Origin: Escherichia coli
GTDB taxonomy: Bacteria > Pseudomonadota > Gammaproteobacteria > Enterobacterales > Enterobacteriaceae
Length of the DNA: 64,000 nt
Direction: 5' to 3' (one strand)
NCBI RefSeq assembly: GCF_030384885.1
Contig: NZ_CP128613.1
Shown: in pieces, positions 31,601 through 37,600 of the stretch
How the letters are laid out: each line of letters begins with the position of its first letter
Position numbering within the stretch: the stretch's first letter is position 1
Program-made: the position numbers

Positions 31601-34600
31601 ATATTGCGCCTTCTGCCAACGCTTACGTTGCGCGGGCGACAATTTATCGCCAACGTCATAATGTCCCGGCGGCGGTGAGTGATTTGCGCGCCGCTCTGGA
31701 ACTGGAACCGAATAATAGCAACACCCAGGCAGCGCTCGGTTACGCCTTGTGGGATAGCGGTGATATCGCACAGTCGCGGGAAATGCTCGAACAGGCGCAT
31801 AAAGGGCTACCGGACGATCCGGCACTTATCCGACAACTGGCCTACGTGAACCAGCGTCTGGATGATATGCCTGCGACGCAGCACTACGCCCGGCTGGTGA
31901 TTGATGACATTGATAATCAGGCGCTGATAACCCCACTGACCCCAGAGCAAAATCAGCAACGCTTCAATTTCCGCCGTCTGCATGAGGAGGTCGGTCGCCG
32001 CTGGACGTTCAGTTTCGATTCTTCTATCGGCTTGCGTTCCGGCGCAATGAGTACCGCTAACAATAATGTCGGCGGCGCAGCGCCAGGGAAAAGCTATCGT
32101 AGCTACGGGCAACTGGAAGCCGAGTACCGCATCGGACGCAATATGCTGCTGGAAGGCGACCTGCTCTCGGTTTACAGCCGTGTATTTGCCGATACCGGAG
32201 AAAACGGGGTGATGATGCCGGTGAAAAATCCGATGTCCGGCACCGGTCTGCGCTGGAAGCCGCTGCGCGATCAGATCTTTTTCCTCGCCGTCGAACAGCA
32301 GTTGCCGCTGAACGGGCAAAATGGCGCATCCGATACCATGCTGCGCGCCAGCGCCTCATTCTTTAATGGAGGCAAATACAGCGACGAATGGCACCCGAAC
32401 GGTTCAGGCTGGTTTGCCCAAAACCTGTACCTCGATGCGGCGCAATATGTCCGCCAGGATATTCAGGCGTGGACGGCAGATTATCGCTTAAGCTGGCATC
32501 AGAAGGTGGCTAACGGACAGACTATTGAGCCTTACGCTCACGTTCAGGACAACGGTTATCGTGATAAAGGCACTCAGGGCGCGCAGCTTGGCGGTGTCGG
32601 GGTCCGCTGGAATATCTGGACCGGCGAGACGCACTACGACGCCTGGCCGCACAAAGTCAGTCTCGGCGTCGAATATCAACATACCTTTAAGGCGATTAAT
32701 CAACGTAACGGAGAGCGCAACAACGCGTTTCTCACCATTGGAGTGCACTGGTAAATGCGTAAGTTCATTTTCGTATTGCTGACACTGCTTTTGGTCAGCC
32801 CTTTTTCCTTTGCGATGAAAGGTATTATCTGGCAACCACAAAACCGTGATAGTCAGGTTACCGATACCCAGTGGCAGGGGCTGATGAGTCAGTTACGTTT
32901 GCAAGGCTTCGATACCCTGGTTTTGCAATGGACCCGTTACGGCGATGCATTCACCCAGCCAGAACAGCGTGCGTTATTGTTTAAGCGTGCCGCAGCTGCG
33001 CAACAGGCTGGCCTGAAGCTGATTGTCGGGCTGAATGCCGATCCGGAATTTTTTATGCACCAGAAACAGTCATCCGCGGCGCTGGAAAGCTATCTTAATC
33101 GCCTGCTGGCTGCCGATCTCCAGCAAGCCAGATTATGGAGCGCCGCGCCTGGCGTAACGCCGGATGGCTGGTACATCAGCGCGGAAATTGACGACCTGAA
33201 CTGGCGCAGCGAAGCCGCCCGTCAACCTTTGCTGACATGGTTAAACAACGCGCAGCGGTTGATTAGCGATGTTTCAGCAAAACCGGTTTATATCAGTAGT
33301 TTTTTCGCCGGAAATATGTCGCCCGATGGCTATCGCCAACTGCTGGAACACGTTAAAGCAACCGGCGTTAATGTCTGGGTTCAGGATGGCAGCGGCGTGG
33401 ATAAACTTACTGCTGAACAGCGTGAACGTTATCTACAGGCCTGCGCCGATTGCCAAAGTTCCGCCCCTGCCAGCGGCATTGTTTATGAACTGTTTGTCGC
33501 CGGTAAAGGCAAAACCTTTACCGCGAAACCGAAGCCAGACGCAGAAATTGCCTCACTGTTAGCAAAACGTTCCTCTTGTGGTAAAGACACGCTCTATTTC
33601 TCTCTGCGCTATTTGCCCGTCGCGCACGGCATTCTCGAGTATTAAATCCCCTCCAGGTAAGTCGGGTACGACCTGGCTTACCTCTTTCGCTCTCGTCAGA
33701 ATTCCATCAAGATTAATTGCTAAAAAGCGTGCTAAAGAAAGAAGATCGTTATCGGCGAACGGGCCGATCACTCATGCAGGAAGCATAGATCCTTTGAGCG
33801 GAGTTTCTGATATCTGAGGAGTGCGAAATGCAATTGAGCAGCAGTGAACCTTGCGTGGTGATCCTGACCGAAAAAGAGGTAGAGGTAAGCGTCAATAACC
33901 ATGCTACGTTTACCCTTCCGAAAAACTACCTGGCCGCCTTCGCGTGCAACAATAACGTCATTGAACTCTCAACGTTAAATCACGTATTAATCACCCACAT
34001 CAACCGTAACATCATCAACGATTATCTGTTGTTTTTAAATAAGAACTTAACCTGTGTAAAGCCCTGGTCGCGGCTGGCTACCCCGGTTATCGCTTGTCAT
34101 AGCCGTACACCGGAAGTGTTCCGGCTAGCCGCCAACCACAGCAAGCAGCAACCCAGCAAACCCTGCGAAGCGGAGTTGACGCGCGCATTGCTTTTTACCG
34201 TATTGTCTAACTTTCTTGAGCAATCGCGGTTTATTGCCCTACTGATGTATATCTTACGCAGCAGCGTCCGCGACAGCGTCTGCCGCATTATTCAAAGCGA
34301 TATTCAGCATTACTGGAATCTGCGAATTGTCGCCAGTTCGCTATGTTTAAGCCCCAGCCTGCTCAAAAAGAAATTAAAAAACGAAAATACCAGCTATAGC
34401 CAGATTGTCACAGAGTGTCGTATGCGTTACGCCGTACAGATGTTATTGATGGATAACAAAAATATCACTCAGGTAGCGCAATTATGTGGCTATAGCAGCA
34501 CGTCGTACTTTATCTCTGTTTTTAAGGCGTTTTACGGCCTGACACCGTTGAATTATCTCGCCAAACAGCGACAAAAAGTGATGTGGTGAAGGGCAAAGCG

Positions 34601-37600
34601 GAAACAGATAAGACTGGCATAAATGAAGAAGAAATGGCGCGCCCTGCAGGATTCGAACCTGCGGCCCACGACTTAGAAGGTCGTTGCTCTATCCAACTGA
34701 GCTAAGGGCGCGTTGATACCGCAATGCGGTGTAATCGCGTGAATTATACGGTCAACCCTTGCTGAGTCAATGGCTTTTGATCTGGTTGCTGAACAAGTGA
34801 ACGACCACGTCTGATTTTCTGATTTATTTCGCTATAGCGGCAAACAAACGCACCCCGCTGCGCATCTGAATCAAGAAAACCCGTATTTTCATGTATCAAA
34901 GTACAATTTCCAGCCCTAACGGAAAATTGTCCTACCCTGTGAGACTGGTAACTATGAAACCAACGTCGGTGATCATTATGGATACCCATCCTATCATCAG
35001 AATGTCCATTGAAGTTCTGTTGCAAAAAAACAGTGAATTGCAGATTGTCCTGAAAACGGATGATTACCGCATAACCATCGATTATCTCCGAACCCGTCCT
35101 GTTGATTTAATCATTATGGATATAGACTTGCCCGGTACAGACGGTTTTACCTTCCTGAAAAGAATCAAACAAATCCAGAGTACGGTGAAGGTATTATTTT
35201 TATCATCAAAATCAGAATGCTTTTATGCGGGCAGAGCGATACAAGCGGGTGCTAACGGTTTTGTCAGTAAATGCAATGATCAGAATGATATTTTTCATGC
35301 CGTTCAGATGATTCTCTCTGGATACACTTTTTTTCCCAGTGAAACGCTCAACTATATAAAAAGTAATAAATGCAGCACCAATAATTCAACAGCTACTGTG
35401 CTATCTAATCGTGAAGTGACTATATTACGCTATCTGGTTAGCGGATTATCTAATAAAGAAATTGCAGACAAACTATTACTTAGCAATAAAACAATTAGTG
35501 CGCATAAATCTAATATTTATGGCAAACTCGGTTTGCATTCAATTGTAGAACTTATCGACTACGCCAAATTATATGAATTAATATAATATTAATTATAATT
35601 GATCATAAATATCGCATCCGCTTTCGCCACACCTGGTTGGACACCGCTGGCTAACGCTCGATAATTGGCAAAAAAGTTTAGCGTTACATTGCCATTTGCA
35701 TCTACCTCCTCAGTCGGGCTCGCCTCGCCCAGCGCAAGCCGGGAGCGATCGCTCTTGCGTAATTCGATGGCGACGGTTTGTGCCATTGCGGGATCGTCCA
35801 GGGCCAGCAGGTTGACATCGGATGCCGGCGTTCCCGTAAATAAAATCGCGACTGATCCCGGAGGACATCCTTCCAGGCGCAGACTAAAAGGAACAAGTGC
35901 CGTGGTATCGCCAGCGGCCAGCAATTGTGTCGTGGGCCATCATCCTAAATCTACCGTCTTATCAACATCCGCTGTGTTTACGGTACAGGAGAAATCAACA
36001 ACGTTACCGTGCAAATTGATATTAATCGTTCCTAAAGGGTCCGTGGCCCATACGCTGGAACTCCACAGTAGCCCGCAGAAACAGCTAAAGAGTTCTCTTC
36101 TCATTCTCCATACCTCATTGATAATCAACGCGTAAATACCCCAGCGCGCTAAACGGTCCTTCGGCAGGTTTTTGACCAGTAATACTGATAGGCCAGGCAC
36201 GAAGTGTGACATTGGCCGCCGCAGCTGTATCCAGACGGAAAGGAATAACGCTATTGAGATCGTTAGGCGTGATCGGCGTATCGTTCTGATCGGCGACAAT
36301 AAAACCTAAATCCTGATTGTCCGACACCATCGCCTGACCAGAAACGGCACTGGCTTCCAGACGCATTGTTAAATAAGCCTGCGCAGCAACATTCGTACAT
36401 TTGATCGCAATGCTCTTGGTTTGCGGCATGACACCAGCAGGTCGATTACCCGGCCCTGCCGCACTAAATAACGATGCGCCGATATCACCAAAATCAAATT
36501 CAACAATCTGCCCGGCATTTAATTCGCAGTTTTGCGGTACTTCAACCCGGCCACCAAAACTAATGGTATAAACAGGTGTAACCAACGGATCGTAAGGCGT
36601 TGATGTCACATACACGGTAAACATCACCTGTCTGGGGATCTCCACCATGTTAATAAAAGGACGAATAACCTTTAAACGAAATATCAAACGAGAATCCATC
36701 ACCCCGAATGGAAGGTTTTGCGAAACGTTAGGATCTGTTCCCATACGGATATAATTTTGCGGGGGAAATTGAATATCCATCACGCTATCAACCAGACTCA
36801 TCGCACCTAATAGATAATCATTTAATTGCATATATTTATAATTATCGATAGTTTCCTGAACAACAAAGTTGGTGACATAACTACGGTATGTATAATTCAC
36901 CAGCGTGCCGGGTGGACAAATTGCTGACACACCTACCCAGCCGGATTTTTCAGGTAAAACAACAATCTGCCCTGGCTGGTTATTGGTGCTATTAAAGACA
37001 TTTGAGAGATCATAGTGTTCATCTTCTGCTACGCCAGTACTATTTGCACAAACAGTAGCCCAGGATATGTTTGTTAACCACAAACATGCCATTGCCAATA
37101 ATGACCTGCAGATTATCTTCATTGATAATTTCCTTTATGAGCCAGGATGTGTGCAAACTGCCGAAATAACAGTGACGGCTTGCTGTAAGCTTTGCTTCGG
37201 CAATACATAGTGCGCAATGCAGCGTGAGTTCGCGCCGTCTCCCCACTGAACCAGTAATTCACCAGACAATGGCGCACCACTTAAATAAACTTGCCCGTCA
37301 TCACCCACCATACTGGTTATTCCGGTACTGTTTTCCCGTACCAGTGATCCAAACGGCACCGGTTTTCCGCCCTGGGTAACGGTAATGAGCGCCCGCACGC
37401 CTATGCGGGTATCAAAATTGGCACGAACCAACGCGCCTTGCGTCGGCACAACGCTGCTAATATTTTTTTCAACATCAATGGAATTCCCCATCGTATTGGT
37501 ATCAAGCGCGATACGGTTATACCGATAAACCGTGGCATACGGCATCACCGCATAGCCGCGCCAGTCGGTTAAAATTCCAGTTTGATTTTCAATGCGTACA

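Follow-up and report, generated by a model that had tools for sequence, protein, structure and literature searches.

In Escherichia coli K-12, the lambdoid prophage DLP12 occupies the end of the argU tRNA gene, and ompT and appY lie between argU and envY. In the 64,000-nt stretch of E. coli DNA analyzed here (the window), argU and envY are immediate neighbors. What does this junction represent, and did a prophage ever reside there? The window holds one tRNA gene, a tRNA-Arg with anticodon tct (ARAGORN), which is an intact argU, tRNA-Arg(UCU), on the minus strand (34635..34711; Rfam RF00005, 72.1 bits) and matches K-12 argU along its entire length without a difference. Convergent with it lies envY (33828..34589, plus strand), a 253-aa ORF encoding an AraC-family regulator (Pfam HTH_AraC and HTH_18) whose product is 99.6% identical to K-12 EnvY. 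The envY stop and the 3' end of argU are separated by exactly 45 nt (34590..34634), as an initial sequence-only reading had estimated, and no intrinsic terminator or stable structure was found in this spacer (z-score 0.75). Upstream of argU, a consensus scan gives a promoter-like site, TTGACT-16 nt-TATAAT (34743..34770, minus strand, 11/12), which is the same upstream of K-12 argU and would function as the argU promoter. Beyond it lies the bacterial gene fimZ (34954..35586, plus strand), colinear with K-12 fimZ and labeled in agreement with the annotation of the best-matching genomes.

The junction contains a 47-nt common core, CTTCTAAGTCGTGGGCCGCAGGTTCGAATCCTGCAGGGCGCGCCATT (34633..34679, minus strand), which spans argU from its anticodon through the 3' CCA terminus and extends 2 nt farther. 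This core is identical to both direct repeats bounding K-12 DLP12, to both ends of a prophage in E. coli 2013C-4282, and to the attP of 2G7b, a sequenced phage, and it is single-copy in the window even when up to 3 mismatches are allowed. In a four-way alignment the window reads as the left side of K-12 attL, the core and the right side of K-12 attR, and 2G7b attP reads as the left side of K-12 attR, the core and the right side of K-12 attL. Both flanks of the core in the window are bacterial arms, B (outside attL, the fimZ side) and B' (outside attR), and no phage arm is present. The B' arm, defined by the K-12 and 2013C-4282 flanks as the bacterial spacer from the envY stop to the core (34590..34632, no strand assigned), has 3 substitutions relative to the sequence right of K-12 attR and none relative to the corresponding flank of attR in 2013C-4282 (100% identity). 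Judged by its sequence, the envY-argU junction is an exact, scarless and unoccupied attB of DLP12-type (argU-specific) phage integrases; this supports the earlier proposal that the argU site lacks a prophage, having been either never filled or precisely emptied. envY adjoins argU because the strain carries no prophage at a known integration site.

In the tRNA gene, the 47-nt core and the outer flanks (fimZ and envY), the attB of K-12 DLP12 is the same as that of the window, which corresponds to K-12 as if DLP12 had been removed att-to-att. There is no structural difference at the site; what distinguishes the two are the substitutions in the 45-nt spacer and an overall divergence of 2–5%. K-12 DLP12 is the RefSeq feature 564755..586056, with appY and ompT inside it; past ompT comes the second copy of the core, at a distance of 43 nt from the envY stop. 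The sequence-only reading had placed these two genes between the prophage and envY, which is incorrect, as they belong to the att-bounded element. Elsewhere, the window and K-12 (614411->535387) are colinear, exceptions aside. Relative to K-12, the window has an insert of ~6.8 kb between cusS and nfrB, three tandem copies of hokE/sok rather than one (blastn, Rfam) and two intergenic gaps of ~120 nt, and it lacks the IS186B of K-12. These observations concern gene identity and synteny and are no matter of chance. Tandem Repeats Finder returned nothing for the hok region, probably because a period of ~500 nt is the limit of the tool.

Is any prophage DNA left in the window? A blastn search with K-12 DLP12 DNA gave no match there, and a tblastn search with 13 DLP12 proteins (including IntD, OmpT, AppY, EmrE, YbcK, QuuD, RrrD, NohD, BorD, RusA, and TfaD) gave none apart from weak AraC-family paralog matches of AppY and YbcM, which fall on envY itself. 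No integrase gene lies beside argU: envY is the first gene past the tRNA, and the window contains no IntD-like match. A DLP12 or ompT-bearing remnant at the site was considered and rejected, with no int, ompT/appY or duplicated core in the window. The earlier observation that integrase, lambdoid genes, ompT, and appY are all missing from the window is borne out by these searches, and alignment of the junction revealed none of the ompT, appY or phage genes that would have contradicted it. For ompT, the absence is established for the 64,000-nt window as distinct from the whole genome.

The joint absence of int, ompT, and appY is explained by the absence of one element, since in 2G7b ompT lies beside attP and int (gene order ompT-attP-int). 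Identity to K-12 core+intD is ≥99% in 14 phage records. Phages with a DLP12-type integrase include 2G7b, ev243, PhiR68_2, Turner, Kati, PhiR29_1, and PhiR49_1; in such phages an attP with the same 47-nt core lies beside a 99%-identical int, and they represent the mobile partner (P-O-P') of which the window is the chromosomal site. The Stx phages 75/02 Stx and POCJ13, whose integrases are ~80% related, are not claimed as users of the argU site; their matches begin past the core. In the proposed mechanism, lambdoid phages with a DLP12-type tyrosine integrase would recombine within the 47-nt core, the presumed catalyst of the exchange being Int. On integration, the phage copy of the core would restore the tRNA at attL, beside int, and ompT and appY, carried as cargo on the other side of attP, would land at attR beside envY. 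A chromosome without the prophage would be expected to have only 45 nt between envY and the end of the tRNA gene, and to lack int, ompT, and appY together.

A near-clonal relative provides a comparison. E. coli 2013C-4282 matches all 64,000 nt of the window with 8 mismatches and no small indels, and it carries at the exact argU junction a prophage of 49,256 bp (NZ_CP027579.1, 2074715..2123970) bounded by identical 47-nt cores. The outer flanks of this prophage at the junction are 100% identical to those in the window. Over longer distances there are 0 differences in the 13.4 kb left of the core and only two, at 35942 and 36199, to the right. A 387-aa intD lies at its argU end and ompT and appY at its envY end; identity to K-12 DLP12 is 99.2% at the int end and 98.8% across the attR-proximal 4 kb (ompT, appY, tfa', ybcY). 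It is in effect a full-length DLP12: its head, tail, lysis, replication, and immunity modules are complete, as they no longer are in K-12 DLP12. PhiR29_1 and PhiR49_1 cover 81–86% of a queried 24.6-kb stretch of it at 97–98% identity. The only other block difference between the window and 2013C-4282 is a separate 8.9-kb deletion in the window strain, with only 2-nt microhomology; both block differences are clean. Since the two differ over the window by 8 SNPs and yet by a 49,256-bp prophage, the difference is attributable to one recent, site-specific event, presumably mediated by the integrase. The account as a whole, an attB for DLP12-type lambdoid phages and one site-specific exchange relative to 2013C-4282, merits high confidence. 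The suggestion that the lineage never acquired the prophage was too broad: it may hold for the window strain, but this very site carries a prophage in a genome that differs by only 8 SNPs per 64 kb.

Within the species an empty argU site is more common than any other state, being found in 2,455 (45%) of the 5,426 complete E. coli genomes, and it is already known from published work: strains W and Crooks have nothing inserted there (PMC3032704, Table 2). What is added here is the comparison with 2013C-4282. Among genomes whose junction is contiguous, the five closest (99.4–99.6% identical) are all empty. At the same tRNA, MS15046, apparently a B2-type strain, has a decayed int'-tfa'-ybcY-ompT remnant of the same kind of element and lacks sfm-fimZ and envY, with ybcH-nfrAB still present, whereas in the window the gene sets on both sides are there and a remnant is not. 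A scan of contigs for the core followed by N{30,60} and the envY end, a pattern that is blind to genomes without envY such as MS15046 and that yielded no information on other Escherichia, returned a single 3.5-kb contig with attR and ompT, filed under a Collinsella MAG and presumably E. coli DNA.

Was the phage gained by 2013C-4282 or lost by the window strain? Because site-specific recombination is scarless, the sequence of the junction cannot tell whether the site was ever occupied. A slight preference goes to a window strain that was never lysogenized and a gain in 2013C-4282, a lean that amounts to weak parsimony on one near-clonal genome. The converse, that the common ancestor was lysogenic and the window strain was cured by precise Int/Xis excision, which would have remade attB and removed ompT and appY, falls only a little short of an even chance. 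The prophage of 2013C-4282 has kept its int at full length and its Xis-like ORF intact, the latter being almost the same as in 2G7b, and an IS3 insertion in its gpFI gene indicates that it is no brand-new arrival; the residence time implied by IS3, together with the intact int and xis-like ORF, makes excision in the window strain fully plausible. The junction in the window is base-perfect, a passage in PMC4632033 (citing PMC2408971) reports induced excision of DLP12 in K-12, and the window strain carries a separate deletion, of 8.9 kb, relative to 2013C-4282. Against excision, this route takes two events, a gain and a loss, where a single gain on the 2013C-4282 branch suffices, and the next-closest genomes are all empty.

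The other explanations fare far worse. The sequence-only reading had hinted that envY-ybcH-nfrBA is itself a tRNA-associated island, and one might propose that an old genomic island at argU, a different element, fills the site. The block does adjoin the tRNA 3' end, and envY has a lowish G+C of ~0.46 and is missing from some strains (MS15046). However, this side carries no integrase and no full or partial copy of the core in its 34.6 kb (≤3 mismatches), the G+C of nfrBA and ybcH is an ordinary 0.51–0.57, and K-12 has the block at the same place, outside the att-bounded prophage; the hint gains no support, and the island is very unlikely. Marginally less probable still is import of an empty site by homologous recombination (transduction or conjugation), replacing a prophage-bearing allele. 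Potential donors abound at 45% of E. coli genomes, and such import would also clear degraded, non-excisable prophages like the MS15046 remnant, but the closest empty-site genomes differ by at least 0.4%, so that an imported tract should show a cluster of SNPs, and there are none relative to 2013C-4282 in the 13.4 kb left of the core and only 35942 and 36199 on the right. The SNP-free junction largely refutes this route, which survives only with a clonal donor. Least credible of all is an artifact (loss of the prophage during assembly, a mixed population whose reads include excised cells, or an edited sequence), for although just 8 SNPs and two clean block differences separate the window from a public complete genome, assemblers do not as a rule collapse a unique 49-kb insert that has 47-nt repeats at its ends, the scattered SNPs and the independent 8.9-kb difference with its 2-nt microhomology suggest a natural isolate in its own right, and the identical empty junction occurs in 2,455 complete genomes.

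With the junction taken as an unoccupied attB, the interval is to be annotated as an ordinary empty attB at argU, and the absence of ompT and appY at this locus is to be read as one missing phage and not as separate deletions. The near-clonal lysogen suggests that the site could take up such a phage in this host, and temperate phages of the DLP12 type could probably use the strain as a recipient. An empty argU site neither opens nor settles a long-standing question, and its practical value is modest; even so, the window strain and lysogenic 2013C-4282 offer a ready comparison for the effects of the prophage, ompT and appY included. Tentatively, and with rather less than even confidence, the two may form a near-isogenic pair found in nature, one strain free of, and the other lysogenic for, a full-length DLP12-type phage that is competent to excise; the outer-membrane protease OmpT and the regulator AppY would then be switched in and out within one clone as the phage enters or leaves argU. 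If this is true, both proteins would be traits of lysogenic conversion with a turnover as fast as that of clones, whereas in K-12 they are fixed remnants.

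argU, the gene for tRNA-Arg(UCU) and the sole tRNA gene that ARAGORN finds in the window, lies at 34635..34711 on the minus strand (Rfam tRNA, 72.1 bits). It is flanked on one side by envY (33828..34589, plus strand), whose product carries AraC-type HTH domains and is 99.6% identical to K-12 EnvY, and on the other by fimZ (34954..35586, plus strand). Exactly 45 nt (34590-34634) separate the 3′ end of the tRNA from the envY stop, and the tRNA call, the EnvY ORF and this gap bear out the coordinates and description of a sequence-only reading that had placed envY ~45 bp from argU with no prophage between them. 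A near-consensus promoter-like site (TTGACT-16-TATAAT) is present upstream of argU, and neither an intrinsic terminator nor a stable hairpin is predicted in the 34590-34634 spacer, towards which envY and argU converge. Any read-through from argU would cross envY in the antisense direction; in lysogens, phage sequence follows argU instead.

In K-12, the cryptic lambdoid prophage DLP12 occupies argU, and the RefSeq feature extends from within argU (564755) to 586056, spanning intD through appY and ompT. A repeat search of this stretch returned a single long-range direct repeat, whose copies differ at one of 50 nt and share an identical core of 47 nt (CTTCTAAGTCGTGGGCCGCAGGTTCGAATCCTGCAGGGCGCGCCATT). 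The core sits in the 3′ portion of argU and recurs with its end 43 nt short of the envY stop. Aligned with the two K-12 junctions, the window junction consists of the flank left of K-12 attL (the argU 5′ half, promoter and fimZ side), the core (34633-34679) and the flank right of K-12 attR (the envY side), with three substitutions in the 45-nt spacer. The attP of phage 2G7b, a sequenced Escherichia phage with a DLP12-type integrase, is made up of attR-left, core and attL-right, completing the four-way relationship. Because of this four-way match the window junction is, at the level of sequence, a base-perfect B-O-B′ site (attB). No second copy of the core occurs in the window with up to three mismatches tolerated, and DLP12 DNA and proteins find no match there other than AraC-paralogue matches onto envY; ompT, appY and phage genes are thus missing from the junction as had been proposed, and the main reading of an empty argU site is essentially correct.

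Other parts of that reading fare less well. It held that ompT and appY lie between the prophage and envY in K-12, but both are inside the att-bounded element, and ompT has already been described as part of DLP12 (PMC2588501). The gene order of 2G7b is ompT (“Protease VII omptin precursor”), attP, integrase, and therefore integration sets ompT beside envY and int beside argU, as in K-12; the absence of a single element explains every missing gene. These absences concern the window, and OmpT could be encoded in another part of the source genome. The suggestion that the envY-ybcH-nfrBA block is an argU island in its own right finds no support, as a distal repeat and an integrase are absent from the window and the G+C content of nfrBA is normal.

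How common is the empty site? Contiguous envY-argU-fimZ is found in 2,455 of 5,426 complete E. coli genomes (45%) and the K-12-type ompT-attR-envY junction in 1,582 (29%), the rest having other arrangements at argU; ompT occurs in 3,095, roughly complementary to the empty class. In the CSF isolate MS15046 (NZ_CP082103.1, 17700-22600), argU directly follows folD without the sfm operon or fimZ, and beyond it a decayed 2-kb int′-tfa′-ybcY (methyltransferase)-ompT remnant leads to ybcH without envY. With this layout added to the other junction types, the locus takes at least three structural forms within E. coli. In the E. coli W genome paper, the “argU tRNA” entry is blank for strains W and Crooks, with DLP12 there in K-12 and B (PMC3032704, Table 2). 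From these counts and that paper, the empty site is the commonest state and already documented.

K-12 core plus intD matches 25 phage records, 14 at ≥99% identity, and the core itself is within the matches from 2G7b, ev243, PhiR68_2, Turner and Kati; Salmonella phages SEN22 and BIS08P22 match at ~77-78%, core included. These matches indicate that the DLP12-type argU site is in current use. The Stx phages 75/02 Stx and POCJ13, with a ~80% integrase match and the core unmatched, are not claimed as users. In the Turner (PP925837.1) and Kati (PP925833.1) records the attP core is annotated “tRNA-Pro”, yet its sequence is the 3′ part of tRNA-Arg(UCU); a tRNA finder probably mislabelled the att core.

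The source belongs to a divergent E. coli lineage, with 95.0-97.8% identity to K-12 across the window. Among contiguous junctions, the five genomes that match best do so at 99.4-99.6% identity, and in each the site is empty; in RMDEC465, among the closest empty-site genomes, fimZ (7155-7786) is annotated as frameshifted, and an intact copy is found in both the window and 2013C-4282. The latter (NZ_CP027579.1; human stool, USA) is the only one of the 5,426 genomes near-identical to the window, at 100% in the housekeeping folD-purK stretch (next best 98.6-98.8%). Over 64,000 nt it shows eight mismatches (1494, 5906, 17383, 17435, 19774, 20719, 35942 and 36199), no small indels and two block differences. 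The first, an insert of 49,256 bp, falls precisely on the argU-envY junction and has identical 47-nt cores at both ends. Its envY end carries ompT, appY, a tfa fragment and a ybcY-like methyltransferase (98.8% identical to K-12 DLP12 over 4 kb), its argU end a 387-aa intD (DNA 99.2% identical to K-12), and its lambdoid tail, head, lysis, Q, replication and immunity modules are complete; the sequenced phages PhiR29_1 and PhiR49_1 align at 97-98% identity with 81-86% of the 24.6 kb queried. The prophage amounts to a full-length relative of K-12 DLP12, which is decayed.

At the site, the two strains differ by one exchange within the core, with the flanks unchanged: the left side is identical over 13.4 kb, and on the right the closest differences are at 35942 and 36199. 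An Int-mediated site-specific event would therefore separate them and is the best-supported mechanism. Integration and excision are both scarless, so sequence cannot tell the direction. We lean slightly towards a window strain that was never lysogenised and a gain of the phage by 2013C-4282, since the next-closest genomes are all empty and one event is enough. Precise loss by excision from the window strain's lineage is only a little less probable: the IS3 that interrupts gpFI in the 2013C-4282 prophage implies time for collecting it, int and the HTH, Xis-like ORF overlapping its start (nearly identical to its 2G7b counterpart) are intact, and in K-12 DLP12 is reported to excise when induced (PMC4632033). 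With the population frequencies observed here, a simple reversible gain-loss model gives both directions about the same probability. Replacement of a prophage-bearing allele by homologous recombination with a diverged donor is argued against, as the closest empty genomes differ by at least 0.4% and would leave a SNP cluster that the flanks do not contain. The scattered SNPs relative to 2013C-4282 and the independent second block difference, which has just 2 nt of microhomology, make an artefact of assembly or editing unlikely.

That second difference is 8,949 bp of 2013C-4282 missing at 21296/21297, comprising vgrG, a DcrB-like gene, a full-length Rhs gene of 4.8 kb and the small ORF after it. 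Because junction microhomology is only 2 nt (TA), the window strain seems to have lost a T6SS vgrG-Rhs effector module by illegitimate deletion. Between cusS and nfrB the window has a ~6.8-kb insert (20620-27557) not found in K-12, with an orphan Rhs C-terminal fragment (21416..22534), a DUF4304 ORF (22546..23103) and a complete ISAs1 transposase gene (23510..24643). A group II intron (24642-26459, minus strand; Rfam Intron_gpII 24642-24717 and group-II-D1D4-2 26342-26459), with its RT/maturase ORF (24719..26236), sits between this gene and a 5′-truncated second ISAs1 copy (26413..27300; 98.3% identical to the first over 752 nt), an arrangement identical in 2013C-4282 that suggests rearrangement at the intron. 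The hokE/sok toxin-antitoxin locus is present in three tandem copies (5053-6450) versus one in K-12, with Rfam sok matches at 5219-5373, 5721-5876 and 6224-6379 (period ~500 nt; copies 93-95% alike); three hokE genes are also annotated in 2013C-4282, and the IS186B adjoining hokE in K-12 is missing from the window. The cusC-cusF spacer (16957-16960) lacks ~128 nt of K-12 sequence, and in the glxK-allE spacer (56294-56316) ~120 nt of K-12 are replaced by ~21 nt, directly adjoining an STnc480 sRNA match (56229-56295).

The empty argU attB is real and was correctly seen, yet it is ordinary and already known for E. coli; the near-clonal lysogen 2013C-4282 adds a useful detail rather than a surprise.
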